Of a stretch of DNA of 64,000 bases, positions 20,763-50,144 are shown in pieces. How positions within the stretch are numbered: position 1 is the stretch's first letter; every line of letters starts with the position of its first letter. The position numbers and the translations under genes were made by a program. The DNA lies in NCBI GenBank assembly GCA_041395245.1, contig JAWLAY010000023.1, forward strand, positions 7,351 to 71,350, written 5' to 3'. The notes below the pieces were generated by a model. It was not told the DNA's origin and made no database searches. It saw nothing but the letters and a program-made list of their open reading frames with translations. The DNA comes from Lysobacteraceae bacterium (GTDB lineage: Bacteria; Pseudomonadota; Gammaproteobacteria; Xanthomonadales; Xanthomonadaceae).

Positions 20763-23558
20763 TCAACGCGTTATCGGACAGCGCTGGATGCCCAATGCCG
20801 CAGTGCTCAATTCCTGTCCAGACTCGACGGCACCCTTCCACCAGCCACCGGAGAGCGTCTGGCGCAGTGGTCCCAGTGTGTCCGCCGAAAACAGGGCTTG
20901 CTCTGCTTGCCGAGCCGCGACGCAAAGCGACGGATCACCACTCCAGTCACGCCCTCGCGTCAGCAAGCTCAGTGTCGCGGGCTTGTTCTGGCTGAGGTTG
21001 TCCGGGTCAGGAATCACGCTGCAATTCAGCACGCTATCGAACGCCGCCCCACCCAAGGTGCACAGCGAAACGTTCGGCCAGACGGCATCGACATCGACCT
21101 CGCCGCTGCCAGTGCGCGGCAGGCTCGCAAGCACTTGCTGCGGCGTTTCGCGCAAGGCGCGCAGCAGAAGGTCGGCCTGTGCCACGGGCAGGCTGTGGCG
21201 ATAGTTGAGGTAGAGCCTGTCGAGTATCGGGTAGTACCACGCGTACAGCATGAAGTACTGACCCATCGCACAACTGGCGTCGGCCTGCAGCTGCAACTCG
21301 CAGATCAGGCCTGCACTCAGGGAATTGGTGATCAAGTGACCCAGCACCTCACGCAGACGACTGTCGCAGGTCTCGCCGATCGCTCCGGGGACGAACTCGG
21401 CGCATGTCGCCAGGCTTTGCACGTATTGCAGGTTCAGCCGACCCACGGCTGACCATGAGGTGTCGTCCTGCGGATCGTTGGTGAACCGCAAGCCCGCCGC
21501 GATGCCCGCCTCCGCCAGGCGGTCCTGATGTGCCGCGCTCGGCCACAGCACATAGGCCAGAGACTGATGCCGGTTGTAGGTGTAGTCGGCGGACCCCGAG
21601 GCCGAACGGTGCCAGAGCCCGTCGCCGCTGCCACCTGAGCCGAAACTGTGTCCGGCAATATTGCTAGTACTGCCGGCGGCGTTCGGCCATCGCCCGAAGT
21701 TGTAGTAGGCGGTGTAGGCCATCAGCCAGGACTGCGGCAACGCAAATTCCCACACCCAACGCGGATCGCCGCCGCGCAGAAATTCCGTCAATTCGATCTG
21801 AACCGGATCCCAGTAGTTGAGCTTCACCTCGTTGCTCGCCGGGTCCGGGTTTTCGGTGAATCCGAATTGCTCGTTGAATTGGATATCCGGCCAGATCTGC
21901 TGTCCGTAGGTCTTCGCGCAGGACCATTGCGAACCGATGCCGTTCTGCGCGTCCGTGCAGGCGCGATCCGCCACGGTCGCGCGATGTTTGTCCAGCACAT
22001 AGCTCGCGTAGGCGTTCCAGAGCTGGGACGGATTGTTCCCCAGCAGGGGCGGCATCACCCCCGCCGCATCCAGATCCTCCACCTGTTGGCGAACGAGCAG
22101 CGGCCGCTCCAGGCGAAAGTGCGCCTGGTACGCCAGTGCGGTCAGACCATTGATCGCGTCAAAGACGCTGTCGAAGGCGCGCAGGGTCAAGCCACTGCGA
22201 AACCAGAGTGATTTCGCCTTGCCGACCTTTACCGGCTCGCTGACCCAGCCCAAGGTCAATGCCCCACCCTGCACGGATAGCGACTGCGGCTCGCGGAACG
22301 ACATCCATGCATGGGCAATGCTCGCAATCAGCGTTCGTCCCGATGGCAGATCGATGCGGGTACCGATGGCGGGCCGATCAAATCGCTCGGCCGACTGCAC
22401 CACGGCGCCGTTGTGTCGGTAGCTCACATCGCGTCGCCAAGGGCTGCCGCTGCCACGGGCTTGCCGGATCTCATGGTGCTCTGCTGCACCGGCCGCAACA
22501 AAGCGGGGATTCCCGATGGTGGCCACGATCGGCACGGCGGCCGCTTCGCCACCTCTGGCCAAGGGCAAGGTCAAAGCCAGCTCCTGCACAAGCAGGGAAT
22601 CGCTGTCTGGCGCGGACTGCGGTGTCCCACAGGCGTTGCCCAACTGCACTTCCATGTCGATATCGGCCTGACCCCGGACAAAGCTCAGGGCGATGCTGTA
22701 AGGCAGGCGTCGACCGCCTGACGCGCCGCTGCAAGTGGTGCCGACCGGTGCGTCCAGCCAGCCATCAATTTGCACCTGCGCCGCGACGGGCCCCAAGCCA
22801 CCGAACCAACGTGTTTGCTGCGGCTGCAAACGGCCAAGACCGGCCTGCAGATCCACCAATGGGCTGCCATCCGTTTCAGCGACCCGCAATCGCCAACCCT
22901 CGCTGGCACTGGCGGCAACATACAGCGCGTCCAGACCGCCCTGATCGTCGCGCAGATGTATGGACCGTATCGGTTGGGCTTGCGTCCCGTCGATCTCGAA
23001 CACAGCGGCCCCGGTATCGATCTGGAATCGCTGAGCGCCGAGCGTCTGCACGCTCAATGCCGCACTATCGGCCGCATCCAAGGGCGCATCCTGGGACATG
23101 ACTGCGACCACCGCCTGCGGATTCACGCCAACCGACAATTGAAGTCGGAGCCAACGAATCGGCGCCGATGTATCACTCAAGGGTCGCCCCCAACGCGAGA
23201 GAACCTGCCATTGCACGGGACGCCGCTGGCCTTGCGCATCCACCACCCACCAGCGCAGCAGATCACTGTCTTGCACGTTCAAGCCGTGCGGCAAGGCCAT
23301 CACCCCATTGGCGCGCTGCACCTCCCGAGTCGTCAGGTCATTGGTGATCTGCACGCAGCTCACCAACGTGGCATCCAGAATGGGCGGAGGCGGCAAGCTA
23401 TCGCCACTTACCCCGCCACTGACACACGCCGGCAAGCCACCCTCAAAGCCATTGGCGAACAGTGCCGCCTGCGCCGCGGCGTCACGCGACTTGCCCAGGC
23501 AGAGAAAGGCGAGGATCACCAGTGCAACCCACCGAATCCGAAGGCTCATCGGTTTCAT
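20763..23558 (-). CDS. Large exported protein (931 aa), YetA/exo-rhamnogalacturonan-lyase-like architecture, with LFANGFE just after the signal peptide
   Basis: Signal ...DAAA|QAALFANGFE; N-terminal V.DAQG..RPVQWQVLSRW...IRWLRL and later NYWDP..ELTEFLRGGDPRW resemble RIFT-barrel plus alpha-toroid proteins (recognised by eye). Confidence 0.6.
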   Translation of the reverse strand: MKPMSLRIRWVALVILAFLCLGKSRDAAAQAALFANGFEGGLPACVSGGVSGDSLPPPPILDATLVSCVQITNDLTTREVQRANGVMALPHGLNVQDSDLLRWWVVDAQGQRRPVQWQVLSRWGRPLSDTSAPIRWLRLQLSVGVNPQAVVAVMSQDAPLDAADSAALSVQTLGAQRFQIDTGAAVFEIDGTQAQPIRSIHLRDDQGGLDALYVAASASEGWRLRVAETDGSPLVDLQAGLGRLQPQQTRWFGGLGPVAAQVQIDGWLDAPVGTTCSGASGGRRLPYSIALSFVRGQADIDMEVQLGNACGTPQSAPDSDSLLVQELALTLPLARGGEAAAVPIVATIGNPRFVAAGAAEHHEIRQARGSGSPWRRDVSYRHNGAVVQSAERFDRPAIGTRIDLPSGRTLIASIAHAWMSFREPQSLSVQGGALTLGWVSEPVKVGKAKSLWFRSGLTLRAFDSVFDAINGLTALAYQAHFRLERPLLVRQQVEDLDAAGVMPPLLGNNPSQLWNAYASYVLDKHRATVADRACTDAQNGIGSQWSCAKTYGQQIWPDIQFNEQFGFTENPDPASNEVKLNYWDPVQIELTEFLRGGDPRWVWEFALPQSWLMAYTAYYNFGRWPNAAGSTSNIAGHSFGSGGSGDGLWHRSASGSADYTYNRHQSLAYVLWPSAAHQDRLAEAGIAAGLRFTNDPQDDTSWSAVGRLNLQYVQSLATCAEFVPGAIGETCDSRLREVLGHLITNSLSAGLICELQLQADASCAMGQYFMLYAWYYPILDRLYLNYRHSLPVAQADLLLRALRETPQQVLASLPRTGSGEVDVDAVWPNVSLCTLGGAAFDSVLNCSVIPDPDNLSQNKPATLSLLTRGRDWSGDPSLCVAARQAEQALFSADTLGPLRQTLSGGWWKGAVESGQELSTAALGIQRCPITR

Positions 23559-23578
23559 TCCTAGGTCAGTTGTATCGC

Positions 23579-23881
23579 TCAGGGCTCGAAGCCATCGCGA
23601 AAGATGCTCCCGGACACCGGTGCCCCCAGTCGGAAACCCTCCGCCATCCGGAGAATCGGTCGTGCACCTTCTACCGGCGCCGTGACGTTCCCGCCTTCCA
23701 GCCCGAACGGTTGTCCGATCAGCTCCCGCATCGCCCAGCGACCGTCAGCCGACGTCACCGACGCTCCAGGCGCCCACGTCCACTGCTTCAGTTCCCATGT
23801 CCCACCCGCTCTGAGCGGGGCCGACGGCATGCCGAGCAAGGCAAGGAGACATGCGGCATGACGCATCCCACGGCGGCTCAT
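23579..23881 (-). CDS. Small exported protein (100 aa) ending IFRDGFEP
   Basis: Signal peptide ...APLRA|GG, Gly/aromatic beta-rich core with IGQP; overlaps the upstream gene stop (ATGA). Confidence 0.7.
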   Translation of the reverse strand: MSRRGMRHAACLLALLGMPSAPLRAGGTWELKQWTWAPGASVTSADGRWAMRELIGQPFGLEGGNVTAPVEGARPILRMAEGFRLGAPVSGSIFRDGFEP

Positions 23882-25758
23882 AACTCACCGCAGTCGCTGT
23901 ACTGACAGCGCTGATAGCGGAGGTCCTGCGCGCTGGCGTCGTAATAGACGACGCCAACGCCGCCAGAACGCAGGCGCTTGGCGTCCAATCGCGTCGGCGT
24001 CACGGAAACCGGCACCGTGATCGGTGATGAACTGGCGAACGTGTCGATGTCGGACAGGCTCCACACGCGCAAGGGAAAACTTGCGTCCGTGATGCTGCTG
24101 ACAATGATCGGCGCCCCTTCCAGGCGGGGTACGACCGCCGTCCCATTGGCAAGCAATCCACCCAGCGAGACGGCAGCAGATCGTTGCGCGCACGACTCGT
24201 CGTAACAGGTGACGAACTTGCGTGAACTAGTCGCCAGATCGGAGAACGTGATCCACCGGCGTTGCTCGCCGCCGACCACCCAGGTGCCGGTGGCGAGCTG
24301 CGATCCAAATTGTCCTTGTGCAATGGTGTGCGTCGAGCGGGTTGCACAACTGGCGTCCTGACATTGAACCGCCTGAACCCGACCGTCCGCGTTTTGTCCG
24401 GTCGCGTTAGTAAGCACGACAAAGAAGGGCAACGTACTGCTGTCATCCAGATCCCGTGCCGCGGCAACAGCGCCGGTCGGCGCGCCGACGAGGGGCAAAT
24501 TGTCAAGCGCAGTAATCGGCGCACCCAGACACTGCGGGTCGGCACAGCGGGCGTACTTGTAGCGTTGGTTGGTGACATCCAGATAGACCACGGCATAGTT
24601 GCTGCCGTAGCGCACGATCTCGGCGAATCGCCCAACGTCGCCCGTGCTGTCGATGGTGCGAATCGTCGCCCCGCCCGTGCAGTCCTGATTACCACAGGAG
24701 GCGACCTGAAGGTCATCTTGCGCCGTGTCGTAGTAGACCATCACGGGCAGGTTCTGGCTGTTGTGCATGAGGCTGACGTACTCACCTACGCCGCCGGTCG
24801 CGATCTCCACGGTGGTCGGCGCCGGTGACGCACAGGCTTCATTGGCGCACCGAACGAACTTCAGCGAGCCGCCGTTGGCGGTGTCGAAATACGCCACTTC
24901 GATCGAACTCGTACTCGAACGACGACTGATGGACAGGTGCGAGCCGACATTGCCCGCACTGGCCAAGATCACCGATGCGGCAGGCGTCACCGTATCGATA
25001 TAGACGCATTGCACCGACCCGTCGGCGTTGATCTTGCGAATCGAGGCCCGCGGAGAGGTTGGACACTCACCGCTGATCGGCAATTGCCCAGCTGTGCCGG
25101 GCGCTGCGGCTGACAGGGTGACGACGCCACCGCTCTGTTGCACCACGATTCCCGATCCGGGTGTGGCGGTCACGCTGCTGACGACCGATTGGCAGCTTGG
25201 CTGACCCGTGCTCGAGATATTGCTCAACGCGGATCCGGCCGGACATCCCGCTGCGAGGCGGCGCTGGATGCCCCAGCTGATGTCGGTGCTGTTCACGTCG
25301 CGCGCGTCGAGTGTCCCGTCGGCAACGCCAGCACCGGTGACGCTGCCGCCGGCCACCGAGATCGCTCGCGCAGCGTAGGGAACCGGCACGGGAACGCCCG
25401 CCATGGAAAGCACCTCGTAACCGCCCAGCGTCCCCGCGTCACCGAAGTCGCCGTCCCGGACACTGACCTCGAAGGTGACAAAGCCGTCACTGGCGAAGAT
25501 ATTGCCCAGGTCGATTGCCACCTGAAACAGGCCATTGGCGACCTCGACATCGTCCTCCACATGAAGCGCGCCGAAGACGACGCCATCAAGCATCGGTTGA
25601 AAAGCCAAATCGACCGTGCCGTTGTAAGGCGCACCATCACGGGTCAGATACCCGTGGTAGTGAAACGCGGTCGGTGCCTGCGCATGCGCGCACGGGATGG
25701 TCAGGGTTGCCAGTGCTGCAACCAGCAGTGCAAGAATGGATCTGATAGCAAGGTGCAT
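23878..25758 (-). CDS. Exported fibre/adhesin-like protein with Cys-flanked neck repeats and a C-terminal beta-propeller
   Basis: Signal AHA|Q; FHYHGYL..G.P..G..DL...V..GLF.V.ID head domain; PYAA.A; CPAGS..SNISSTGQPSC and CP...IRKINADGSVQC; repeats G.VG.Y.S...YYD....L...C...C. Confidence 0.7.
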   Translation of the reverse strand: MHLAIRSILALLVAALATLTIPCAHAQAPTAFHYHGYLTRDGAPYNGTVDLAFQPMLDGVVFGALHVEDDVEVANGLFQVAIDLGNIFASDGFVTFEVSVRDGDFGDAGTLGGYEVLSMAGVPVPVPYAARAISVAGGSVTGAGVADGTLDARDVNSTDISWGIQRRLAAGCPAGSALSNISSTGQPSCQSVVSSVTATPGSGIVVQQSGGVVTLSAAAPGTAGQLPISGECPTSPRASIRKINADGSVQCVYIDTVTPAASVILASAGNVGSHLSISRRSSTSSIEVAYFDTANGGSLKFVRCANEACASPAPTTVEIATGGVGEYVSLMHNSQNLPVMVYYDTAQDDLQVASCGNQDCTGGATIRTIDSTGDVGRFAEIVRYGSNYAVVYLDVTNQRYKYARCADPQCLGAPITALDNLPLVGAPTGAVAAARDLDDSSTLPFFVVLTNATGQNADGRVQAVQCQDASCATRSTHTIAQGQFGSQLATGTWVVGGEQRRWITFSDLATSSRKFVTCYDESCAQRSAAVSLGGLLANGTAVVPRLEGAPIIVSSITDASFPLRVWSLSDIDTFASSSPITVPVSVTPTRLDAKRLRSGGVGVVYYDASAQDLRYQRCQYSDCGEL

Positions 25759-25970
25759 AGCGTCTTCCTCCGGCATTGCGTGGTATGACGCAGCAGAGCA
25801 CGTTCATTCTCATCACCACCCCATTCCTCCTTGGGTTGACAGGAACGGATGCGTTCGCTATCCGTAGCGCGCGCAAGCATTCGGAAGCCGTTGTCAAGCC
25901 GGAAGTGCGGGTAGACGACGCCTGAACTGCGCCGCAGTCTGGCGATGTCCTGCTCCTCATCCGGTGCCTT

Positions 25971-26657
25971 ATGAACGATCCAGCTCGGCCTGCTCCACGT
26001 ATTGCGCTTGTCGAAGACGACATCGACACTCGACGCGCCGTGTTGAACCGCTTGTTCAGTGAACGAGATATCCATCTGGCCTTTGAAGCCGGGTCCATCG
26101 CGCAGGCCAGGCAGTGCTGGGAGGAGTTGGACTTTGATGTGCTGTTGGTGGATTTGGGTCTGCCCGATGGCTCAGGCCTCGACCTGATCAGCGAAGCGCG
26201 CCAGCGCTTCCCTTCCGCGTTGATCATGGTGCTCAGCGTGTTCGGCGACGAACAGAAGCTGATCGCGGCGATCGAGCGTGGCGCCAAGGGATATCTGTTG
26301 AAGGACGAAACTTCGATCGGCCTAACGCAGGCAATCGATGATCTGTGGGCCGGTGGCTCACCGATCAGTCCCGCCATTGCACGACATCTGGTCAGGCGGC
26401 TGGCACGTGTTGATCCAGTCCCCGGTGCCAGAACGGACAACGCGGCCATCAACAACATGCTGACCGGGCGCGAACGCGAGGTGCTGCAATTGTCGGCCAA
26501 GGGATTCAACCACGCCGAAGTGGCGCTGCTGCTTGGCCTCAGCAAGAACACCATTGCCTCGTATACGCGAACCATCTACGAGAAGCTGGAAGTGCATTCG
26601 CGACAGGAAGCGCTGTTCGAAGCAGATCGTCTTGGCTTGTTGTCTCCGACGAACTGA
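25971..26657 (+). CDS. NarL/LuxR-family response regulator
   Basis: ALVEDD, LVDLGLPDGSG, GYLLK and HTH LTGREREVL...TIASYTRTIYEKLEV. Confidence 0.93.
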   Translation: MNDPARPAPRIALVEDDIDTRRAVLNRLFSERDIHLAFEAGSIAQARQCWEELDFDVLLVDLGLPDGSGLDLISEARQRFPSALIMVLSVFGDEQKLIAAIERGAKGYLLKDETSIGLTQAIDDLWAGGSPISPAIARHLVRRLARVDPVPGARTDNAAINNMLTGREREVLQLSAKGFNHAEVALLLGLSKNTIASYTRTIYEKLEVHSRQEALFEADRLGLLSPTN

Positions 26658-26663
26658 ACGCCC

Positions 26664-28559
26664 ATGCGCAAGGCTCTGGCACTCGTTTGCGGCGGTGCAG
26701 CCATTGCACTGGCACTGATCCTTGGCCTGAATCATCTGACCACCACGCCATTGCCCGACAGCGCCGTTCGAGTCCTCGACGCGGAACGCAGCCTCGACCC
26801 GGCGCTCGACCCCCATGCCATCGACGCAGCAAGCTGGACGCCAATTCCGCTTCCGGACGATGCCCCCTTCGTCGCGGCAGCACCACGGCAACGGGCGTGG
26901 TATCGACTACGGATCCCGGCGCCTGCCACGCCAGATCGACTTCACTCTCTGCTGTTTGCCACGCCCTATGCGGCACTGAAGATCTGGATCAATGGGCAAC
27001 TGATCGCGGACGCCGGCATCGCTCGCTCGCCGGTTCCGGAATATCGACACGCCCTCCGTTACACGATTGCGCCGAGCCTGTGGCATGCAGGAAGCAATGA
27101 AGTCACGATCCTCAGTGTCGCGCAGACCCGCGAAACCGGCCTGGGCCAGGTATGGCTCGGGGATGCCGCGCAGATGGCGCGTTACAAGTCACAACGCAAT
27201 CTGATCGAGAAGCGCTGGCCCACCACCTCGATCCAGATCATCCTCGTACTCGCCGTGGTCCTGCTCGCGTTCTTTTCCGTTCGTCCCGGCGACACCGCAT
27301 TTGCCTGGTTCGCCGCGTCCCTGGGGAGTTGGGCCCTTCATGCCTCGCTCCAACAACGCAGTACGCCGCTACCCTGGTGGCCCAACTTCACCTATCCACT
27401 GACACTGATCGCTCTGGTCTGGTTCGCGCTGTTCGGTTTGATGTTCGTGCGCGCACTTTGCCAGCGCCCGCAACGAGCCTGGCTGATCGCCGCCTGGAGC
27501 TTTGCATTGCTCGTCAGCGCATTACTGACCGCCATTACCCTCGCTGGAAGTGGCACAACACCCCGGTCCGGCGGACTGATTCTAGTCGTCCCCGGCGTGT
27601 TGCTCATTGGCATGGGCATCGTCGGAACGCTTTGGCAATCGGTGAATGCACAGCCAAGCAACCGCGAGACCTCCGCATTGCTTTTGCTCGCCAGCCTGTT
27701 GCTGACCATCGGGCTACGTGACTGGATGCGCGATCTCGGGTTGATCGCCAATGCCGGCGAGATCGCCTATCTGCCCTTCGCGGTGCCTGCCGTATTTCTG
27801 GTGTTTGGCGGCATGCTGCTGCATCGCCATGCCGCCGCCCTGCGAGCCGTGGAGCAGGCCAATCTGAACCTGGAGCGCAAGGTCGAGGAGAAAACCCGCG
27901 ACCTCGAAACCAACTACAAGCGGCTTGCCGAATTTGAAGGCCAGCGCGCTCGCGCGGAAGAGCGTGATCGCCTGGTGCGTGAAATGCATGATGGCGTCGG
28001 GGGACACCTGGTCCATGCGCTTGCCCTGTCAGAGCGCCTCGACGACGCCAAACCGCTGAGTGACGCCATTCGCGATTGTCTCGACGACCTTCGCGTTGTC
28101 ATGGATACCGCCAACATCGAAAACGAGCGACTCAACGACGCTCTGGCGACGTTCCGCGAGCGCATTGATCGCCGCCTCCACGCGCTGGGCATCGCGCTGC
28201 ACTGGGACTTCACCCGTATGCCCGAGCTGCCATGCGTCGGTCCGCAGGCAACGTTACACATCCTTCGCATGCTGCAGGAGTTGATCACCAACGTCATCAA
28301 ACATGCGGCCGCCCAGCGATTGCTCATTTCGATTGATCTCTGCGACGCGAATGGAAAGGACGAACCGGCGGCACTGCAGATGCACCTCGAGGATGACGGG
28401 TGCGGCTTCTCAGTGCAGGAAAAGGCCCGCGGCCGCGGTCTTGGCAATGTCAGAAAGCGAGTAGAGGAATGGGGCGGGTCGATGCAAGTCAGCACCCAGC
28501 CCGGCAAAGGCACCCGTGTTCAAATCGCCTTCCCCATGCCGCAGCGGCAGCAGGCGTGA
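26664..28559 (+). CDS. 7TM sensor histidine kinase (HisKA_3) with a periplasmic sugar-binding-like domain
   Basis: Periplasmic WYRLRI...KIWINGQLI...GSNEVTI, seven hydrophobic segments, H-box REMHDGVGGHL, NVIKHA, DDGCGF, GRGLGN. Confidence 0.85.
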   Translation: MRKALALVCGGAAIALALILGLNHLTTTPLPDSAVRVLDAERSLDPALDPHAIDAASWTPIPLPDDAPFVAAAPRQRAWYRLRIPAPATPDRLHSLLFATPYAALKIWINGQLIADAGIARSPVPEYRHALRYTIAPSLWHAGSNEVTILSVAQTRETGLGQVWLGDAAQMARYKSQRNLIEKRWPTTSIQIILVLAVVLLAFFSVRPGDTAFAWFAASLGSWALHASLQQRSTPLPWWPNFTYPLTLIALVWFALFGLMFVRALCQRPQRAWLIAAWSFALLVSALLTAITLAGSGTTPRSGGLILVVPGVLLIGMGIVGTLWQSVNAQPSNRETSALLLLASLLLTIGLRDWMRDLGLIANAGEIAYLPFAVPAVFLVFGGMLLHRHAAALRAVEQANLNLERKVEEKTRDLETNYKRLAEFEGQRARAEERDRLVREMHDGVGGHLVHALALSERLDDAKPLSDAIRDCLDDLRVVMDTANIENERLNDALATFRERIDRRLHALGIALHWDFTRMPELPCVGPQATLHILRMLQELITNVIKHAAAQRLLISIDLCDANGKDEPAALQMHLEDDGCGFSVQEKARGRGLGNVRKRVEEWGGSMQVSTQPGKGTRVQIAFPMPQRQQA

Positions 28560-28566
28560 GCCTCGC

Positions 28567-30354
28567 CTATTCGAAACCGTCAGCGAACACCCCCGCTGCG
28601 CCGCCCACTATGTACTCGAACGCACCGACATCCGGCAGCACATCGCGGGGGTTGCCCATGACATCCGCGCTGCTGCTCAGCAGTGGATCACCGGCATCGC
28701 GTGCCGCGCTGTTCTCCAACAACCGGAACCCCTCGAGAACACCCGAAGCCGGATCGGCGAATCCCGGATCAACCATTGCCGAGTGCAGATCCCAGGCCGA
28801 CAGGGATTGCCAAGCGGCGAGCGCCCCGGCCCCATCATTCCACTCAGCAAGCGATGCGCGCGTGGTGTCGCACAGATTGTGGTCTATCGCGACATAGCCA
28901 GACCAGGGCACGCCCAAGTCGAAGCAATTGAAGCCACTGTCCCCACCTTCGAACCGAACGGCGTTGGAGACCACCACGGCCCCTTGACCCGAACCGGCAC
29001 GCACATCCACCCCCGAATGGGCCTGGTTCGAGGCGAAATAGAGCGAGTTGTTGCGAACGATGACGTCGACATCCACCAGGTCTTCAGGTGTCGGGGTCAG
29101 CGGTGATACGGCAATACCGCGTGTCGCCATCTGCTGGGTCTGGACCACCAGATTGTCTTCGACGACGCACTGTTGGCAGGCGCCAACACTGATCGCGACA
29201 TTGCCAACATCGAAAATGCGATTTCCGCGAAGGATGAGCCCCTGGAACCCTTCGACACCCCAACTGCCCGTATAACCCGGCACAACCGATATTCCCCAAC
29301 ATCCAGCGTTGGCGAGGCCCGGCAGCTCACGCACCTCGTTGTCCTCGATACGCAGGTCGACGTGATAGCCATGCACGACCAGCGAGGTGGCACTGCACGA
29401 ACCCGCACCATCCAGGGTTGATTGCAGCAAGGAGTTGCCTCGGATGCGCATGCCTTGAGTGTGACCTGAGGCGTAGATGTTGTGGTCGAACGTGGCAACA
29501 GAGCCGTTCCTTGCAAACGAGTTGCGAACGATCTGCGATCCACTGGAGCCGCCGAGCCAGCCATGTTGATGATTGTCATGGATGGCGGAGTCTTGCAGGA
29601 TGATTCGCTCATTGCGCCCATCGCAGAGCGGATCCGCTGCATCACACGCGTTGCTGCCCGCCACGTGCACTGCAATCTGGAAACCAGCGATATCCAGTCG
29701 CAGCAGGCTCACGTCATCGACATCGTTATACGCAAAAACGCCGAAGCCACCGACTCCCTGCAGCACCAGGTCTTCGAACTGGTAGCCCTCCTCATGGTTG
29801 GCGGATCCACCGTCCGCCAGATCAAACATGGCATCGGCATTGGTTCTCTGCAGTAACGGTCTACCCTCGTCGCCATCCGACCAGTCCGCCTGGTACATGC
29901 CGACCTTGCACGGCAGTGCCGCCGTGCATTGGGCGTTGGTCCAACGACTGGGCGACTGGGCATCAATCTGCCAATGCCCACCCGCGCAGAAGCGCACGGC
30001 GTCGCCTGCGGCAAGACTGGAGAACGCCAGCCGCGCCTTGTCATAGGTTCGCCAAGGCTGACCCATCTGACCCGTCGCCGCGTCATTGCCGGCGACGCAA
30101 TTGGCATCGGCTGCCGGCCCGCAGTCGCACACATGAAAATCGGTGGCCTGTGCGCCGGTTTGCACAAGTAGCCCGACGAGGCCCGCCAAGGCCACTCGCA
30201 CCCGAATATCGTGATGGACAGAAAAGCCACCACTCGATCGACGCCAGACCAAGACCGCGCTGCCCACGGTACGGATCCCGACCTCGCGATCTTCCTCGAG
30301 AATCCTGTGCATGCGCGCGCCCTCGTGTCGTCTGCAAGCGTCGATGATCGCCAC
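28567..30354 (-). CDS. Exported right-handed beta-helix protein with a choice-of-anchor-Q-like C-terminal domain, ending VFADGFE (true start probably nearer GTG 30201)
   Basis: Repeating I.dN.i.dn beta-helix turns; DPGF.DP....FRL..NSAARDAG...D..GNPR...PDVGAFEY; signal ...GAQA|TDF. Confidence 0.75.
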   Translation of the reverse strand: MAIIDACRRHEGARMHRILEEDREVGIRTVGSAVLVWRRSSGGFSVHHDIRVRVALAGLVGLLVQTGAQATDFHVCDCGPAADANCVAGNDAATGQMGQPWRTYDKARLAFSSLAAGDAVRFCAGGHWQIDAQSPSRWTNAQCTAALPCKVGMYQADWSDGDEGRPLLQRTNADAMFDLADGGSANHEEGYQFEDLVLQGVGGFGVFAYNDVDDVSLLRLDIAGFQIAVHVAGSNACDAADPLCDGRNERIILQDSAIHDNHQHGWLGGSSGSQIVRNSFARNGSVATFDHNIYASGHTQGMRIRGNSLLQSTLDGAGSCSATSLVVHGYHVDLRIEDNEVRELPGLANAGCWGISVVPGYTGSWGVEGFQGLILRGNRIFDVGNVAISVGACQQCVVEDNLVVQTQQMATRGIAVSPLTPTPEDLVDVDVIVRNNSLYFASNQAHSGVDVRAGSGQGAVVVSNAVRFEGGDSGFNCFDLGVPWSGYVAIDHNLCDTTRASLAEWNDGAGALAAWQSLSAWDLHSAMVDPGFADPASGVLEGFRLLENSAARDAGDPLLSSSADVMGNPRDVLPDVGAFEYIVGGAAGVFADGFE

Positions 30355-30628
30355 TGACCGTCCGGCTGTCTCCCCGCACTCAGAGGTTGACCGCGCTCAC
30401 GGCACGCGATAGCGCCCGTAACAGGGTGTTGAAAACCACCCCGTTACGGCGAGTCACGGATCGCTCGCACCAAGATCAAGCGTGTCAATTGCTTGATCTT
30501 CCGTGTCTGTCGCGGGCACGCACCTTGACGAGACCTGTTGAAAACGGGCAGCAGAACCCTCTTCACATCCTGATATGCGGTCACCCTGCGGACAGATCCG
30601 ACTTATCCTCGAGCCACAACATCCGGAT

Positions 30629-31222
30629 CTACAGTCTGCCGGGACTTCGTCGCCGTGCGTGCGCAGGCATACGCGATGCGGGGCGCTGATCCAACCAACG
30701 CCATTGGCCCGGCGCAAGATCGCCGAGTGCATGGTCACCGATCCGTTCGCGAATCAGTCTCAGGGTGGGAAAGCCCACCGCCGCGGTCATGCGCCGCACC
30801 TGCCGATTCCGGCCTTCGCGCAACACCAGTCGCAGCCAGCGAGTCGGTATCGATTGGCGTTGGCGGATCGGCGGCACACGCGGCCAGAGCCAGTCGGGCT
30901 CGGCGTCGAGAAGATCGGCCTCGCAAGGCAAGGTCGGACCATCCTTCAACAAAACGCCCCGGCGCAAGGACTGCAGGGCGGATTCGTTCGGCACGCCCTC
31001 GACCTGAACCAGATAGGTCTTGGGCCATTTGAAGCGCGGACTGCTGATCTGTGCGATCAGCGGGCCGTCATCGCTCAGCAACAACAGCCCTTCCGAATCG
31101 TGATCAAGGCGCCCGGCGGGATACACGCCGGGCACGTCGAGATGATTCGCCAGCGTCGGCCGTCCCTCCGGATCGGTGAACTGGCAGAGCACGCCAAACG
31201 GCTTGTTGAAGGCGATCAACAT
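30629..31222 (-). CDS. rluE: 23S rRNA pseudouridine synthase E
   Basis: [34 protein letters not shown] and [23 protein letters not shown]. Confidence 0.88.
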
Positions 31223-31263
31223 GCGCTTCGTGGCAGCGGACCGAAGCGGTCCACACCGCTGCC

Positions 31264-32187
31264 TTACTGCTGTGCCGGTGCCGGCTCTGCAGCGGACTCA
31301 CCGGCAGGCGCATCCGTGCTCGCGGCGGGCTTGGTGAAGCGCAGCGTCATGCGATTGGATTCGCCGATGTCGATGAACTTCTGCCGATCCTGATCGCCAC
31401 CACGCAAGGTCGGCGGCAGCGACCAGACGCCGTTGGCGTAATCGGTCGTGTCCTTCGGATTGGCATTGATGTCACTGCGCTCGGCCAGCACGAAACCCGC
31501 GCCGGTTGCCAAATCGATGATCTGCTGCTCGGTCATGTAACCGGAGTCCGCTTTCGGCGTAACACCTGCCGCCGCGCTGTGTTCCACCACACCCAAGGTA
31601 CCGCCCGGCTTCAACGCATCGAAAAAGCCTTTGAAGTACAACGGTGCCTTGTCCTGCCCCAGCCAGTTGTGCACGTTGCGGAAGGTCAGCACGACATCGG
31701 CACTGGCCGGTTCAGCCACCACCGGCGCGGCAGGATCGAACTGCACGATCTGCGCTTCGCCGAACTGGTCCGGCGAGGCCGCGAACTTGTCCTGCAACTC
31801 TTTGAGCGCGCCACCGTAATACTCCGCCGCGCGCGCGTTGGTGGTCTTGGCCGGATCAATTACCGCCGCGATGTAGCGACCCTTGCCCTTCACCAGCGGT
31901 GCCAGAATCTCGCTGTACCAGCCGCCGCCGGGTGTCATTTCAACCACGACCTGTTCGGGTTTGACGCCGAAAAAACTCAGTGTTTCCTTCGGGTGTCGAT
32001 AGACGTCGCGGGCGACGTTTTCCGCAATACGCCATGCACCGGAAGTGGCGGCATCCAGCGGACTGAGGACCGGCTCCGAATCGACCACCGCGTCGGTCTT
32101 GGGTGCCGTCGCCGGTTGCGGGTCCGGGGCCTGTGAGCAAGCTGTCAGTGCCAACAGCGCAGTGATCGCAATCGGTGAGAGACGCAT
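31264..32187 (-). CDS. Lipoprotein class I SAM-dependent methyltransferase-like protein (COG4798 type)
   Basis: Lipobox LTA|C; [42 protein letters not shown]. Confidence 0.8.
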
Positions 32188-32298
32188 TGGGTGAATCTCG
32201 CAAAACTAGAGGGAGTCGGAAAATAGCACAGGGATTGTTCATGACATGTCTGCATTCCGCCCCGGCCGTGCATATCCACACGGCGTTCCTGCCGACGC

Positions 32299-33672
32299 TC
32301 AATCGAGGGAAGATTCGAATCCATCCGAAAACAGCCCAGACGAGGCAAACAGAGCGACAAACCCCACTTCTGAAGCAAGCTCCACATCATCAGTCGGCGC
32401 TGCGACAACCGCCTGCTCTCCCTGCAACGCGACCACTCGGGCATACGAGTACCAAGGCGCTGCCGCCGGACCCTGCTGATGCAACGAGGCCTTGTAATGC
32501 GGATCGCCCAACCCCGCGGCCTCGAACACCAGGGCGCGACTGCCAGGGCTGCCCGGCACTGGCTGACCGATGAGCCAGCGCGGACCGTATACAGCGATGT
32601 CGTAGCCGAACTGGAGTGTTTCCCCACCGGCCGGGGATTGCAGCGGTGGGCGAGAAGTCCAGCCGCTCAAGTCCCGCTGCTCGACCAGCACGCGGCTCGC
32701 ATTCAGCCCACCCACCATCACGTGTCGACCATTCAGTGCTACGGCGTGACCAAAGGCATAGCCAATCTCATTCTCGGATGCAGCGATAAGGCGGCCAAGC
32801 GACCAGACCCCGTGCCCCGTGTCGTACTCGTAGACCCATGCCAGCCCCTTGGGCGGCGCACCAACGCCCGCGCCCGCCTCGCCGATGACCAGGCGATCAG
32901 GCAGCAATGACATGATCGGCTCGACGCGGATGGCGACATCGAACCCAAAGTAGCCACCCGCCGTCGGGTTCGGCGACACCAACGTGTGCTGATTGGTGAA
33001 AGGCACCAACGATGACACACGCGCAAAGGTGACAACTCGACCACTGAATGGCTGGGCGGGATCGATGGTGGCGTTGGGGGCACCCGCCGTCGCGCGATTG
33101 CCATTCAAACTGACTGAATAGCCGAGGGACTCACTGCCAAATGAAGCCAAGTTGCCATCGAACGCACTGCTTCGATCCCACGCGCCGTCGCCGGTCGAAT
33201 AGTTCCAGAACTCCACTCTCCCTGCGCTGTTGCCATGCCCTGGCATGCCAATCATCAGGGTTGACCCGTCGATCGCGAGCGCAAAACCGAAATGGGCGTT
33301 GTTGGCAAGTTGATCTGAACGAATGATCTGGGTCGCGACAGTCGGAATTCGCCCATCTGCATCACGCTGATACAGGTAAACCGCACCGGTGTCCTGCCAG
33401 GTGACAGGGCCGAGTGTCAGATCGGTGTAGGGCACACCAACGGCCAACCACTCTGGAGATAGCGCCAAGGCCGTTCCGAAGTAGGGCGGCAAGCCTTCAG
33501 TCTGCGAGGCCAGCGCTGTCGCCGCCTCGCGAACGCCCTGATACTGCCAGACCTGCGCCAATGCGGGCGTCGCGAAATCCAGTGCAACGACAAGCAACAG
33601 CCCGAAGGGCCCTGACTGGCGCATCACGCCCGCAGCAAGACCACACCTGCGGTTCACCCCAACCCGGTTCAT
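32299..33672 (-). CDS. Exported FG-GAP-repeat beta-propeller protein ending LFSDGFESSLD
   Basis: Repeats FGTALAL, FGFALAI, LGYSVSL, FGFDVAI, FGHAVAL, FGYDIAV; signal ...PALA|Q. Confidence 0.8.
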   Translation of the reverse strand: MNRVGVNRRCGLAAGVMRQSGPFGLLLVVALDFATPALAQVWQYQGVREAATALASQTEGLPPYFGTALALSPEWLAVGVPYTDLTLGPVTWQDTGAVYLYQRDADGRIPTVATQIIRSDQLANNAHFGFALAIDGSTLMIGMPGHGNSAGRVEFWNYSTGDGAWDRSSAFDGNLASFGSESLGYSVSLNGNRATAGAPNATIDPAQPFSGRVVTFARVSSLVPFTNQHTLVSPNPTAGGYFGFDVAIRVEPIMSLLPDRLVIGEAGAGVGAPPKGLAWVYEYDTGHGVWSLGRLIAASENEIGYAFGHAVALNGRHVMVGGLNASRVLVEQRDLSGWTSRPPLQSPAGGETLQFGYDIAVYGPRWLIGQPVPGSPGSRALVFEAAGLGDPHYKASLHQQGPAAAPWYSYARVVALQGEQAVVAAPTDDVELASEVGFVALFASSGLFSDGFESSLD

Positions 33673-34817
33673 AACTCGAACCCACTGCTAAAGATCCACT
33701 GTGGCGGAAACGGCGCAATCTCGACATCCACCAAGGCGCCATTCCCCAAGCCCGGCAGATCCCGCACATTGCCCACGGGCGCGAGGGTCTGACTGTCGAA
33801 CAGTCGAGTGCCACTGCCACCGGTGACAATCAGGCGACTGCCATCATCGCTCGCTACCATTGGCCCCTGTGAATACCCTGCACCGTCACCGACGACCTCG
33901 CTCGCGAGGATGCGCCGATTGCCGGTGGCAGGCGCCTGCTGCAGTTCGCCCCACGACGCCAGACCAAACACCTGGGCGAACCCGAGTGCACCACCCGGGC
34001 CGAACAGAACGATGGGCGCCGGTTCGTTCAACGGATCCGCGGGACGCTGCACCCACAGCAAGCGGCGCGGATAGGACGACATCTGCGGGTAAGGATCACC
34101 CGAGGGCATGGCGTACGCGAAACGCTGATCCTGCCCAGTGGCAATATCCAGCGAGGTCAAGCGCGACTGCGCCGCATTGACCGGTGTGCGCAAATCCGCC
34201 AGGTAAAGTTCGCTGCCATCCGGTGAAAAACCCAACAGCTCGCTACCCCACACATCGCCGGGCACATCTTCCAGCAAGCCGGTGGCGGGATCGAACCACT
34301 TCACCCCGCTGGCGCAACCCAGCAAGAAGACGCGACCGTCGGGATGCACACGCATGTTGTTGTAGAGCGTGTTGCGGCAATCCGGCAATGGCAATGCCGT
34401 GCTGTCGATGACCGTCAGATCTTGTGCATGCAGTCGAACCAGCGCACGTTCGTCCGTGCCGGTCAAGGCCCAGGCGTAGACCACCAAGCCGTCCGGCGAC
34501 ATGGCAATGGCACGCGCCTGGTTCTGGCCAAGCTCACGCTCCGCCACGACTCGGCGACTTCGCGTGTCGATGGCGTAGATCAAGCCGGCATTGCTGCCGC
34601 CCGATTGAAATCGCCAGCTGGACAAATACAGATGGGTACGATCCGGGCTCAGCACCATGTCGGAAGGTTCGTCGGCCAAGCCCGTGATGCTCTGCTCCAG
34701 ACTGAAGTCAGCGAGGTTCACCACATGGACCGCAGAACCCTGCGGCGCACTGATGAAGGCATAGGGTTGAGCACCGGCATTCACCGCCACGACGCCGCCG
34801 AACAGCAGCGCGCTCAT
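33669..34817 (-). CDS. Exported YncE/YVTN-like beta-propeller protein ending IFSSGFEL
   Basis: V.LSPD.THLY, IAMSPDG..VY, FSPDGSELY repeats; translationally coupled to the next gene; start may be TTG 34847. Confidence 0.75.
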   Translation of the reverse strand: MSALLFGGVVAVNAGAQPYAFISAPQGSAVHVVNLADFSLEQSITGLADEPSDMVLSPDRTHLYLSSWRFQSGGSNAGLIYAIDTRSRRVVAERELGQNQARAIAMSPDGLVVYAWALTGTDERALVRLHAQDLTVIDSTALPLPDCRNTLYNNMRVHPDGRVFLLGCASGVKWFDPATGLLEDVPGDVWGSELLGFSPDGSELYLADLRTPVNAAQSRLTSLDIATGQDQRFAYAMPSGDPYPQMSSYPRRLLWVQRPADPLNEPAPIVLFGPGGALGFAQVFGLASWGELQQAPATGNRRILASEVVGDGAGYSQGPMVASDDGSRLIVTGGSGTRLFDSQTLAPVGNVRDLPGLGNGALVDVEIAPFPPQWIFSSGFEL

Positions 34818-35214
34818 CCGAACGAGCCTCCCGAAGCCCGTCTTCAATGTTATGGAGAAAGCACGCAAGCCTAGGAGCCTGCGCGGCAGAAACGATCGAG
34901 GCGAAAAGTCCGCTGCGCGAGGACAGATTTTCGACGATTCGCCGGTCCATAGCACGACTATGGGCCAAGAATCGGCGGAAATAATGGACCTCGCAGACGG
35001 CTTTGCGGACCGGTCGGCTTCTGTCGCGCAGGCTCCTGGCAGCATGGCAAGTCCCCACTCATGGTGCAGCGCGCCGAAATGACGTGCTCAACCAGTTGAA
35101 TGCCAGACGAAGGCGAAACTCCACACTCGGACTTGAGCAACGCGATGCAGCGTGATGGCTGTGGTGTTCGGATGCTGATTGGCATTGATCCGATGACACA
35201 CCGGAGAAACCACC

Positions 35215-37629
35215 ATGCCGCCTGCTCCGTATTTCACGCCGAAGTCTGCATTTGTCCGCCCATGGGTATTGGGCATGTTGTTGCTTGGTTCGTTGGTCAA
35301 TGCGACCCCGCTAGGCTTCCGAGGCGTCATCGAGCCGCCAGACGTCGGTGAAGGTGACGATGGCGACCTGTTTGGAAGTACTGTAGCGATTGGCGGCCCC
35401 ACATTGGCGGTGGTCGCGCCCGGCGACATCGATGGCGCGTTGGGCGAGCGGACGATCTCGCTGTTCCGCCGCGTGGATGGAAGTTACCTGATTGACGGCA
35501 AGATCCAGGGCGGTATCCATTCCTGGGGGTCGGTGGCGGTGTCACCTGACGGTTCTTCTGTCGTGAGCCTGCTGATCGACGCCGACAACCACTGGCGGGT
35601 TCGCCTGTATCGCCGACGCAACGATGGACTTGGCTGGGATCTCGCGCAAACCATCCACTCTCCCGCAGGCTTCAGCACGCCCACGGACGCCTTCGGTCAG
35701 AATCTTGCGTGGGACGGCAACACCCTGGTTGTCAGTGCAGACGAGTACTCGCAGCCGCTGAAAGGCCAAGGTCGGGTCCACGTGTATCCGACGGACGGCG
35801 ATGGCACGCTGCAGTTGCGCGATACCCTGCTGCCCTCCAATCCAGTGACGCTGGGTCGATTCGGCTTTTCGGTCGCCTTACTCGGTGATCGGATTGCCGT
35901 GGGTGCGGTCGGCGAATCGACGCCGAACGGGCCCGGCACGGTCTATGTCTTCACTCGCCATCCTACGCTGCTGGATTGGTCGCAGAGCGCACGAATCACC
36001 GCCCCCCAGAGCAGTTCAAGCCTGAACTTCGGCGAGAAGGTCCAGCTCACCACACTGCCTGCCACGGGCAGTCTTGCTGAAACGCCGACCTTGTATGTCA
36101 GTGCACCGGGCTTCGACAGCAACGCGGGTCGAGTTTTTCGATTTGAACCCGGACAAGGAGGATCGTGGGCGTGGATGGATACGTTCACGGCACCGACATC
36201 GGCGCCACGCAGGCATGGCGCCCTGCTTGCGGCGCATGAAGACACGCTGGCGATCGGATCGTCCCCGTACCTCAGCACACCCAACGAGATCCAAGTGCAT
36301 GAGCGCCAGAGCAATGGTGCGTTCTCGCTGACGCACACCTACAACCAGAGTGCCTTTCCTCAACCTGTCCCGGCCACCTCCCTCGGCCTGAGTCGCGAGC
36401 GCAACGCAACTCGATTGATCGTCGGATTTCCCAATGCCGACATCGGTAGTCGTATCGACCAAGGCAGCGTCGTGGTAGCGACGCGCGGATCGACAGCCTG
36501 GCCGACGCCCCTGAGCGAACAGATCGATACCGGGCCCTCAGCGGCCGACTCGAATTTTGGCAACAGCGTCGCCGTTTCAGGAGACGATGCGGCCATCGGT
36601 GCCGAGTTCCACCATGTAGGGTTCAATGCGCAACAGGGAGCCGTGTACCTGTTCCACAAATCAGCCACTGGCGAATGGAGTGCGGACACACGCATCGTCG
36701 CACCGGATGGTTCCGCCGGTGACTATTTTGGCTCGCGCGTTGCCCTGCAGGGCGACACACTGGCTGTTTCCGCACCCGGCGATGATTTCGGCTCCACCAG
36801 TAACCTCGGCGCGGTCTACGTATTCCAGCGCAAGGGCGCATCGTGGACTCTGCAAGGCAAACTCCAGACCTGCTTTGGTATCGGCAGCGACGCCATGGTG
36901 GGATACATGGGGCTATCGCTCGGCGGTGACCGACTGGTGTTTTCCAGCCCTCCACCCCAGGGTGCCTGCGTCTACCGACGCGAAAATGGCGTGTGGTCAC
37001 TGGAACAATCCTTTGGCGGAAACGACTACAGCGCGTTGGCGCTGCTGTCGGCCGATGGGCAGCGCTTGCTTTTGGGGCAAAGCGCGAGCTACGCACTGCG
37101 GGTGTTCCGCCACGACGGAAATACGTGGACTACCGAGGCGGAAATCCCGATGGATGGCCCAGCCACTATCTGCTGCAACCAGATTGCCTTCGATGGCCAG
37201 CGCATGGCGGTCAATGCGACTCAGACGCAACCCAGCCTCTCGCCATCAGTAAGGACTTTTTACCGCCATGGCGGCCTCTGGCTACCCGAGGCGACGCTGA
37301 CACCTTCGATGCCCGAAAGCAGTTTCGGCGCAGCGGTCGCCATGCACCAGGACACTATCACCGTCTCCGCACCTGGGCTCGCTCCAGCCGGTGGCTTCTA
37401 CCGTTTCCTGCGCGAAGGCAGCCAGTGGGTCGAGGAAGGTCGTTATCTGCTTCCGGAACCCGTTGCCTACAACGGTTTTGGATACGCGCTGGCCTCTGAT
37501 GCGGGCAGCGTGCTGATCGGCGCATATGTTCGCGATGGAAGCAGCTTGTTCAGCAACCCGCGCGAAGGCGGCGTCTACGTGTACGACGTTCCCGGCCCAC
37601 AGATTTTTGCGGATGGATTCGAGGACTGA
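35215..37629 (+). CDS. Exported double FG-GAP-repeat propeller protein (804 aa) ending IFADGFED
   Basis: Many FG.sVAl.Gd.laVgA...G.VYVF repeats; GGAG ribosome-binding site; signal ...LVNA|TP. Confidence 0.85.
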   Translation: MPPAPYFTPKSAFVRPWVLGMLLLGSLVNATPLGFRGVIEPPDVGEGDDGDLFGSTVAIGGPTLAVVAPGDIDGALGERTISLFRRVDGSYLIDGKIQGGIHSWGSVAVSPDGSSVVSLLIDADNHWRVRLYRRRNDGLGWDLAQTIHSPAGFSTPTDAFGQNLAWDGNTLVVSADEYSQPLKGQGRVHVYPTDGDGTLQLRDTLLPSNPVTLGRFGFSVALLGDRIAVGAVGESTPNGPGTVYVFTRHPTLLDWSQSARITAPQSSSSLNFGEKVQLTTLPATGSLAETPTLYVSAPGFDSNAGRVFRFEPGQGGSWAWMDTFTAPTSAPRRHGALLAAHEDTLAIGSSPYLSTPNEIQVHERQSNGAFSLTHTYNQSAFPQPVPATSLGLSRERNATRLIVGFPNADIGSRIDQGSVVVATRGSTAWPTPLSEQIDTGPSAADSNFGNSVAVSGDDAAIGAEFHHVGFNAQQGAVYLFHKSATGEWSADTRIVAPDGSAGDYFGSRVALQGDTLAVSAPGDDFGSTSNLGAVYVFQRKGASWTLQGKLQTCFGIGSDAMVGYMGLSLGGDRLVFSSPPPQGACVYRRENGVWSLEQSFGGNDYSALALLSADGQRLLLGQSASYALRVFRHDGNTWTTEAEIPMDGPATICCNQIAFDGQRMAVNATQTQPSLSPSVRTFYRHGGLWLPEATLTPSMPESSFGAAVAMHQDTITVSAPGLAPAGGFYRFLREGSQWVEEGRYLLPEPVAYNGFGYALASDAGSVLIGAYVRDGSSLFSNPREGGVYVYDVPGPQIFADGFED

Positions 37630-47456: not shown

Positions 47457-47474
47457 GGTCTATGTCGTCCCTGA

Positions 47475-48620: not shown

Positions 48621-48677
48621 GCCTGTCCTGAACAATCATGGAAATCGGTGAATCTGCATCGACATGATGCCTGCGGC

Positions 48678-50124: not shown

Positions 50125-50144
50125 GCTGATGTCTCCCTCGGGCC

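Follow-up and report, generated by a model that had tools for sequence, protein, structure and literature searches.

A short terminal peptide shared by unrelated exported proteins in a Lysobacteraceae bacterium, and its longer form in other phyla

Terminal sorting and docking tags decide where bacterial exoproteins end up, and LPXTG, PEP-CTERM, the C-terminal domain (CTD) of type IX secretion systems (T9SS) and MYXO-CTERM each led to new envelope machinery. We analyzed a 64-kb stretch of DNA from a Lysobacteraceae bacterium (GenBank assembly GCA_041395245.1, contig JAWLAY010000023.1, positions 7,351 to 71,350), hereafter the window, in which six genes for apparently exported proteins encode the same short peptide, [ILV]F.[DNS]GFE, at or next to one end of the mature protein. 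This peptide, referred to below as the tag, lies at the following places in the window.

37603..37623, plus strand: short tag IFADGFE, followed by D and the stop, at the C-terminus of the 804-aa FG-GAP protein 35215-37629
35215..37629, plus strand: 804-aa FG-GAP_2 repeat protein with a signal-peptide-like N-terminus (PF14312, E=2.8e-50, seven stretches)
33675..33695, minus strand: short tag IFSSGFE, followed by L and the stop, at the C-terminus of the YVTN/YncE-like beta-propeller protein 33669-34817
32314..32334, minus strand: short tag LFSDGFE, followed by SSLD and the stop, at the C-terminus of the 457-aa FG-GAP protein 32299-33672
28570..28590, minus strand: short tag VFADGFE, followed by the stop, at the C-terminus of the right-handed beta-helix protein 28567-30354
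23585..23605, minus strand: short tag IFRDGFE, followed by P and the stop, at the C-terminus of the 100-aa exported protein 23579-23881
23442..23462, minus strand: short tag LFANGFE, directly behind the signal peptide of the 931-aa protein 20763-23558

The tag and its carriers

The six-frame translation of the window was scanned with the regular expression [ILVM]F..GFE, and all six matches fall in open reading frames (ORFs) that the initial annotation had named. Five sit 0-4 residues before a stop codon (endings here and below are written up to the stop: IFADGFED, IFRDGFEP, LFSDGFESSLD, VFADGFE and IFSSGFEL), and the sixth, LFANGFE, is N-terminal, occupying residues 33-39 of the 931-aa protein right behind ...AAAQAA. 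From amino-acid composition, 0.018 matches would be expected; when residues were shuffled within every ORF of 100 aa or more, the mean was 0.044 and the maximum 2, with 0.001 terminal matches against the five observed. The proposal that six unrelated exported proteins share the tag is thus borne out, as is its confinement to the termini of such proteins: among window ORFs of at least 80 aa, GF[ED] occurs within the last 8 residues solely in the five that are tagged. By inspection, all six N-termini are signal-peptide-like, in agreement with the Sec signals ascribed to them.

Synonymous codons differ among the six copies (TTT/TTC, GAT/GAC, GGA/GGC/GGT/GGG, GAG/GAA), so the conserved object is the peptide rather than a DNA element, and selection, as judged from the sequence, acts on it as protein. 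A DNA-level repeat or an overlap with a terminator was ruled out by these codon differences and by retention of the peptide in genomes of 38-68% guanine-plus-cytosine (GC) content. Horizontal acquisition of the cluster as an island was unsupported, as neither its GC content nor its GC content at third codon positions (GC3) is atypical.

The folds that carry the tag are varied. FG-GAP_2 repeats (PF14312) score 168.7 bits in the 804-aa protein and 70.9 bits (E=9.8e-20) in the 457-aa protein, above the cutoff of 23 that places both in the family. The beta-propeller protein matches PDB entry 1L0Q, a YVTN propeller (E=3.8e-7). The protein at 28567-30354 contains Beta_helix and choice_anch_Q domains (Pfam, NCBIfam); the choice-of-anchor Q match (NF041518, 29.1 bits, cutoff 25) covers aa 537-581, immediately before the tag, and the enzymes closest in fold to the AlphaFold 2 (AF2) model of this protein are GH136, pectate lyase, AlgE4 and PL6. 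The initial fold assignments therefore stand for the two FG-GAP_2 proteins, the beta-helix and the YVTN propeller, but that of the 931-aa protein, which had been called lyase-like, is unsupported, with no match in Pfam, NCBIfam or PDB. For two genes the likely true starts lie downstream of the longest-ORF starts (Met 30312 for 28567-30354, Met 34817 for 33669-35045).

Orthologues retain the tag. The source organism lies near Aquimonas: its 804-aa FG-GAP protein has a 78%-identical orthologue in Aquimonas sp. This protein's orthologues P0002-P0005 and P0007 are all tagged; endings among FG-GAP orthologues of 51-78% identity include VFSNGFED, VFSDGFED and VFAHGFEP. Distant FG-GAP homologues are tagged as well (P0038, P0074, P0084, P0091), with IFENGFE, IFADGFED and LFRDGFEP found at 38%, 47.5% and 64% GC, and the genomes that keep the tag span 38-68% GC. 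In the 931-aa family it is the N-terminal copy that is kept, right behind the signal peptide in every one of 17 orthologues (46-90% identity). AQD|AVFVDGFESVLPDC and QTLFADGFEPTLLAC are two instances, and in this family a Gly/Pro-rich linker follows the tag; a distant homologue, P0258, is without it. Given that the C-terminal copy persists in FG-GAP orthologues and the N-terminal copy in those of the 931-aa protein, the tag is selected at either mature end.

The tag also shares its position with established signals. In 98 homologues of the window beta-helix protein, the common part ends in PD[IV]GA[YWF]E[WYH] (e.g. PDIGAYEW), and a variable slot follows that holds nothing in about 24, the short tag in about 24-26, a longer form of the tag (described below) in 14, a tail of the type YLPLILK in 6, and other endings. 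In P0173 the slot contains a Cys, a transmembrane segment and an Arg-rich tail that score 23.6 bits against the MYXO-CTERM model TIGR03901 (cutoff 20), and in P0184 a T9SS-CTD-like domain. FG-GAP homologues have a similarly varied C-terminal slot, including a PF18962 T9SS tail in P0106. Such variety is the ‘choice of anchor’ behavior that defines sorting and anchoring signals, and this sharing of a slot is the best in-silico support for the sorting or docking idea.

Other endings recur in the same slot. A second short tail, ..[FV]YLP[LT]I[LF][KR] or ..FLPL[AV]VR, occurs on unrelated passengers, both of the beta-helix family (P0153, P0172, P0174, P0176, P0215, P0231) and of the FG-GAP family (P0046, P0048, P0050, P0053, P0060, P0061, P0064, P0082, P0100, P0116). 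P0153 and P0172 gave no NCBIfam match for it, and it may be another uncatalogued terminal tag; that it is of Chloroflexota origin is a guess. Two more recurrent endings are ..FFRLE[PT]R, one carrier of which is Luteolibacter, and ..D[VL].GYF[EQ]; between them they are carried by the FG-GAP proteins P0094, P0103, P0105, P0111, P0119 and P0120 and by P0056, P0063 and P0211.

AF2 models of the beta-helix passenger, built from a 63-sequence alignment, have a mean predicted local distance difference test (pLDDT) score of 94, as compared with 53-65 for the short tag and 41-67 for the long one, neither of which pairs with a strand. Some proteins have Pro/Thr (PT)-rich linkers before the tag. The low tag pLDDT, the lack of strand pairing and these linkers suggest that the tag is a flexible appendage rather than part of the fold.

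Long and short forms across phyla

We scanned public collections of genomes and viral contigs for a DNA pattern encoding IF.DGFE in one set of codons; the genome sample comprises at least 122 in-frame matches from at least 120 loci. Many unrelated signal-peptide proteins recovered in this way end in ...IFADGFESGDTSAWSxxxP. Taken together, these endings describe a long module of about 19-21 residues, phi-F-x-D-G-F-E-S-G-D-T-S-x-W-S-x-x-x-P-COOH, next to a short form that consists of [ILV]-F-x-[DNS]-G-F-E plus 0-4 residues. Among the 122 matches listed, the distance from the Glu to the stop is exactly 12 residues in 37, 0-4 in 21, another value from 6 to 14 in 25, 15-50 in 7 and more than 50 in 32. 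Among the listed matches of the 12-residue class, conservation extends to positions left free by the search pattern: Trp at +14 in 37/37, Gly9 in 34/37, Ser8 in 29/37 and a terminal Pro in 32/37.

The two forms differ in distribution. Among the matches listed, 17 of the 20 Lysobacterales/Xanthomonadales loci have the short form, which is found in Dokdonella, Aquimonas (including A. voraii DSM 16957), Chiayiivirga flava, Rhodanobacteraceae and metagenome-assembled genomes (MAGs) of Lysobacterales; the initial annotation's mention of similar endings in other Xanthomonadales is borne out, with Dokdonella, A. voraii, C. flava and Rhodanobacteraceae as instances. The long form among them comes from Acidobacteriota (Thermoanaerobaculia, Holophagae, Sulfomarinibacteraceae) and Polyangiaceae. 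Intermediates bridge the two (IFRDGFESTLR, IFSDGFESH, VIFANGFESN). Low-GC homologues carry the short form beside YcgL, GlmS and GlnS, neighbors that we infer to be gammaproteobacterial. The terminal tags among the matches listed are mostly from diderm lineages, and no Xanthomonas, Stenotrophomonas or Lysobacter genome is among them. On these sequences, the window heptad is a lineage-specific truncation of a longer cross-phylum module, with the long form ancestral and the short form of Xanthomonadales type. Of the 7-residue handle first proposed, then, the terminal position and the independence from fold stand, and the slot shared with sorting signals lends new support, but the length does not hold, the heptad being a truncation of the module of about 19-21 residues.

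When 1.84 billion representative proteins were searched with a profile of 19 positions made from the long form, 4,577 protein clusters came up at E<=0.001; full-length matches in single copy stop precisely at the C-terminus. In several proteins the C-terminus bears two tags in tandem, each unit being about 21 aa long. Five small proteins of about 140-240 aa (P0269, P0271, P0280, P0285, P0310) form a family whose N-termini resemble one another (M.Y.VLFT.G.LAL...P.F..GECFRV...); a tandem pair of long tags ends four of them, and P0310 has its two copies further from the end.

The enrichment in signal-peptide proteins that had been anticipated was found across the at least 120 loci: a signal-peptide heuristic was positive for 40 of 54 tagged ORFs as compared with 196 of 709 untagged ones (Fisher p=1.5e-11), and several tagged negatives are visibly over-extended at the start codon. 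The passengers in these loci are very diverse, with the largest tagged cluster covering 10 loci, and many appear from their sequences to be glycan-active or adhesin-like. Several MAGs gave at least 3-4 matches each, which implies, on this sequence count, many tag carriers per genome.

In the viral contigs, a reverse-peptide control gave a similar raw number of DNA matches (27 vs 32), but just one control match fell close to where an ORF of 100 aa or more ends, and the extended motif was absent from all of them. A control nearly without terminal matches indicates that the terminal class is specific to the forward peptide. IMG/VR contigs classed as viral (L008, L012, L016, L029, L032, L033, L037) encode signal-peptide- or lipoprotein-like proteins ending in the long tag; these genes may belong to phages or to host DNA, prophage flanks included.

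Relation to known signals and to jelly-roll domains

The tag appears to be new. NCBIfam and Pfam scans of whole proteins, of 22-33-aa termini, of 37 long tags and of the viral-contig carriers returned no model for it; a profile search of the PDB gave only a chance match, SWD1 GFESGNVYVWSVVIP; and the literature searched with motif strings and sorting-signal terms does not describe it. Its 4,577 protein clusters notwithstanding, neither Pfam nor NCBIfam has a model for it, its structure is unsolved and the literature searched is silent about it.

The initial annotation had set the tag apart from LPXTG, PEP-CTERM, GlyGly-CTERM and the T9SS CTD, and comparison upholds this, as the defining features of each are absent. 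Like LPXTG, PEP-CTERM, GlyGly-CTERM and MYXO-CTERM, the tag is short and modular, and in each genome it forms the very C-terminus of many Sec-exported proteins that are unrelated to one another. As with these small sorting signals, its carriers are dispersed in the genome and unlinked to machinery, and it follows a ‘choice-of-anchor’ domain, with MYXO-CTERM occupying its slot in orthologues. Unlike the sortase, exosortase, rhombosortase and myxosortase signals, it has no architecture of signature motif, transmembrane helix and basic tail, and no Cys; it is acidic, can stand at a mature N-terminus or in tandem, and we know of no cognate enzyme. More specifically, the window tags end 0-4 aa past GFE with no PEP motif, transmembrane segment or basic tail, and their termini gave no TIGR02595-type match at E<=10, unlike exosortase substrates. 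A myxosortase substrate would have the Cys, transmembrane segment and Arg tail that are absent here, and TIGR03901 does not match the window tags. The Gly-Gly motif, transmembrane helix and basic tail of rhombosortase substrates are likewise missing from all six termini, with no NCBIfam match. The LPXTG motif of sortase substrates is absent, and the host is a Xanthomonadales-like diderm, as the 78%-identical Aquimonas orthologue shows, rather than Gram-positive.

The tag shares some features with the T9SS CTD (Por_Secre_tail, TIGR04183/PF18962). Both are C-terminal without a membrane anchor, occur on exported beta-rich hydrolases and adhesins, and are found in the same slot, and the tag, too, would be read after Sec export. 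However, the T9SS CTD folds into a beta-sandwich of some 70-100 aa and comes from Bacteroidota, whereas the tag is 7-21 aa, predicted to be flexible, and carried by Gammaproteobacteria, Acidobacteriota and Myxococcota. None of the six window proteins matches the Pfam or NCBIfam models of this domain, and their tag is 7 aa with low pLDDT. Outer-membrane proteins have a beta-signal with a C-terminal Phe or Trp at the end of the terminal strand of the beta-barrel; the last residues here are E, D, P, L and D, on soluble propeller and beta-helix folds. Dockerin-cohesin pairs and the donor-strand peptides of chaperone-usher systems (N-terminal extension, Nte) offer a functional analogy only. In these, too, a small terminal module sits on diverse secreted enzymes, and the tag, placed at either end and duplicable, would attach to one shared partner, possibly through strand addition. 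Dockerins bind Ca and measure about 70 aa; the tag has no sequence or structural homology to either system, and no cohesin-like scaffold or acceptor groove was identified. Thus, on sequence features, the tag seems akin to terminal sorting and docking tags yet lacks the defining features of any known one.

Internal copies point to a source for the module. Those far from a stop open a C-terminal domain of about 175-190 aa ending in ...FD.FES.R, and their Pfam alignments, all weak, start at profile positions 1-4 of CBM_4_9 (PF02018) and Polysacc_lyase (PF14099). Because internal copies begin jelly-roll domains, the tag corresponds to the first beta-hairpin of a jelly-roll domain resembling a carbohydrate-binding module, used alone, which suggests that the module derives from the first hairpin of a CBM4_9/polysaccharide-lyase-like jelly-roll. 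The hairpin has the same pattern (phi-F-x-D-G-F-E-x-G-x-x-x-x-W), and such domains often stand at the C-terminus in the kinds of proteins that bear the tag. A folded-domain element would thus have turned into a stand-alone linear motif. The tag stops past the Glu, after 12 aa in the long form and after 0-4 aa in the short form, and lacks the remaining 170-190 residues, and therefore cannot be a carbohydrate-binding module in the usual sense; of the complete CBM_4_9/jelly-roll domain (about 130-190 aa), only the first 7 hairpin residues in the window, or 19 in the long form, are present. By tblastn there is no jelly-roll sequence anywhere in the window. With a hidden Markov model (HMM) of the domain, each jelly-roll copy in the fetched loci has its own hairpin in cis, and the domain is usually C-terminal. 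A split jelly-roll, in which an acceptor without its own hairpin takes up the tag, was therefore unsupported, with none in the window and an intact hairpin in every copy of the fetched loci. The Chloroflexota C-terminal tag at 7416-8003 of L047, a MAG of Roseiflexaceae, was discarded as a frameshift or stop after the hairpin within a full jelly-roll domain. The L047 case is a caution for motif-based censuses.

What the tag might do

The tag is real, selected, modular, terminal, flexible, export-associated and in the slot of known sorting signals. We favor, at about even confidence, the reading that Sec-exported and largely glycan-active proteins carry it as a trans-recognized handle for docking or retention. 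Once Sec has exported the protein, the exposed strand, which is amphipathic, aromatic and acidic, would attach to a shared partner in the envelope or matrix, whether a protein groove or sheet edge through beta-strand addition or a glycan, and otherwise unrelated exoproteins would come to share a location or an assembly. By analogy, tandem tags are as would be expected for avidity.

Several points weigh against this reading. Trans binding, the binding partner and the final location of the tagged proteins are inferred only. No receptor, scaffold or sorting enzyme was identified in the window or the at least 120 loci, no secretion system was found by Pfam annotation of the rest of the window, and all-versus-all clustering of 1,148 ORFs from those loci yielded no recurrent untagged gene family beside tagged genes. 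Strand complementation finds no hairpin-less jelly-roll among the fetched loci. The low pLDDT comes from a monomer model, where it may be compatible with packing in cis. The short form lacks the half with the invariant Trp and may act differently from the long form, and the sample of loci is restricted to a single set of codons.

A tag read in the periplasm as an outer-membrane translocation signal, by a variant of the type II secretion system (T2SS) or another secretion apparatus, would also be linked to signal-peptide proteins, would share its slot with T9SS CTD and MYXO-CTERM tails in homologues, and would be expected on many proteins per genome, as the at least 3-4 matches in each of several MAGs imply, in mostly diderm carriers; the lone apparent Chloroflexota C-terminal tag is a frameshift artefact. 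We nevertheless consider this unlikely. N- as well as C-terminal placement and tandem duplication are atypical of known translocation signals and, on sequence grounds, seem to fit a docking handle better; a likely secreted lipase (52032-54212) and other exported window proteins are untagged; no secretion genes lie near tagged genes in the window or the at least 120 loci; and Xanthomonas, Stenotrophomonas and Lysobacter are absent among the matches listed, though the T2SS is, to our knowledge, universal in Xanthomonadales. Docking is favored over translocation because either terminus works, tandem copies are possible and the likely secreted window enzyme is without the tag. Cleavage after GFE by an envelope protease, or recognition by a modifying enzyme, would make the tag a processing or quality-control determinant whose ‘mature’ end Xanthomonadales would encode directly. 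The short form does stop at or just past the E that precedes SGD in the long form, the intermediates IFRDGFESTLR, IFSDGFESH and VIFANGFESN exist, and known C-terminal sorting signals are removed by proteolysis, as in the sortase, exosortase, rhombosortase and myxosortase systems. We hold this to be very improbable, given that no protease gene co-occurs with tagged genes in the at least 120 loci, that residues past the E vary in the short form, and that the tag has no transmembrane segment to present to intramembrane sorting enzymes.

Two further explanations require no partner. In one, which we judge improbable, the tag would work in cis, capping an edge strand or serving as a solubility tail, and so guard all-beta passengers (propellers, beta-helices) from edge-to-edge aggregation; the passengers in the window mostly have all-beta folds, the motif is an amphipathic strand that includes charged residues and a Gly, and the chance PDB match in SWD1 (GFESGNVYVWSVVIP), a region that we take to be a WD40 blade hairpin, hints weakly that a sequence of this kind can adopt a hairpin. 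AF2, however, leaves the tag unpacked (pLDDT 41-67 vs about 94 for the rest), PT-rich linkers part it from the passenger in some proteins, tandem copies exist, the N-terminal copy of the 931-aa family is followed by a Gly/Pro-rich linker, and 24 of 98 close homologues have no tag at all. In the other, to which we give the least credence of all, the tag is an evolutionary remnant of little or no function, left after loss of a C-terminal jelly-roll domain. That internal copies open C-terminal jelly-roll domains of about 175-190 aa, that the weak Pfam matches begin at positions 1-4 of CBM_4_9 and Polysacc_lyase, and that the apparent tag of L047 is a domain broken by a frameshift or stop are all consistent with it. 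A remnant would hardly show a length class fixed at exactly 12 aa past the E with a conserved terminal Pro, conservation in orthologues down to 46% identity, or independent occurrence on dozens of unrelated passengers, in tandem and at N-termini; nor is there any jelly-roll remnant downstream of the window tags.

If the docking reading is extended, the tag would be the ligand of an unrecognized multi-phylum system organizing the exoproteome of Acidobacteriota, Myxococcota and Xanthomonadales, in which dozens of Sec-exported enzymes and adhesins per cell are captured through a terminal strand or hairpin of 7-21 residues by an envelope or matrix receptor or by tag-tag zippering. We offer this only tentatively, as possible but doubtful. 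The captor could be a jelly-roll-type acceptor taking the strand in trans, or the tags could zipper together; if true, this would be a dockerin-like assembly principle without a folded docking domain. The tag could represent a new docking system if a receptor is found, and in that case a very small peptide could serve for display or docking. In practice it offers a simple sequence handle for predicting a sub-secretome and, as a regular expression or HMM, a bait for phylogenetic profiling toward its partner. It marks many glycan-active or adhesin-like proteins in soil and wastewater lineages that are abundant but little studied (Thermoanaerobaculia, Holophagae, Polyangiaceae, Dokdonella, Aquimonas and other Lysobacterales).

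Untagged genes lie among the tagged ones in the window.

23878..25776, minus strand: untagged exported 632-aa protein carrying six C-x4-5-C repeats; its gene comes first in an apparent operon 632aa-100aa-931aa
25971-26657, plus strand: LuxR/GerE-type response regulator, syntenic with tagged genes in relatives
26664-28559, plus strand: 7TMR-DISM histidine kinase (kinase domains by Pfam/NCBIfam), syntenic with tagged genes in relatives

The 632-aa gene overlaps the 100-aa gene by 4 bp. Its Cys-repeat product has no Pfam, NCBIfam or PDB match and is a candidate partner of the tag. Tagged genes and the regulatory pair again flank the orthologue of the 931-aa protein in three relatives, L185-L187. 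The LuxR-type response regulator and 7TMR-DISM histidine kinase are present in 3/3 (46-65% identity to the window by tblastn), as is a tagged FG-GAP_3 protein (LFANGFD, VHADGFE, LFADSFE), and a tagged beta-helix protein (LLMRDGFEN) lies near the 931-aa orthologue in L185 and L187. In L185, a homologue of the untagged 632-aa protein is followed by a 95-aa protein ending in VIFANGFE. This shared neighborhood indicates that the window cluster is a conserved module of tagged exoproteins, which is probably co-regulated.

A Ser/Thr kinase with TPR repeats (37646-39841, minus strand) also recurs in relatives, accompanied in L185 by an extracytoplasmic function (ECF) sigma factor. Elsewhere in the window, a minus-strand cluster at 44931-52031 encodes an MMPL/RND-type transporter, a YCF48-like BNR protein, a DUF1329 (LolA-like) protein and a DUF1302 protein, and the lipase at 52032-54212, of the Lipase_bact_N type, lies upstream of it. 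A bacterial homologue of the MATCAP/DUF1704 carboxypeptidases (55890-57260, minus strand; E=1.5e-109) adjoins groES-groEL. At 3166-3378, on the minus strand, lies a fragment of 73 aa that shares 74% identity with the intact GroEL (57706-59394) over residues 477-549 of the latter; from its sequence, it looks like the relic of a second groEL copy.

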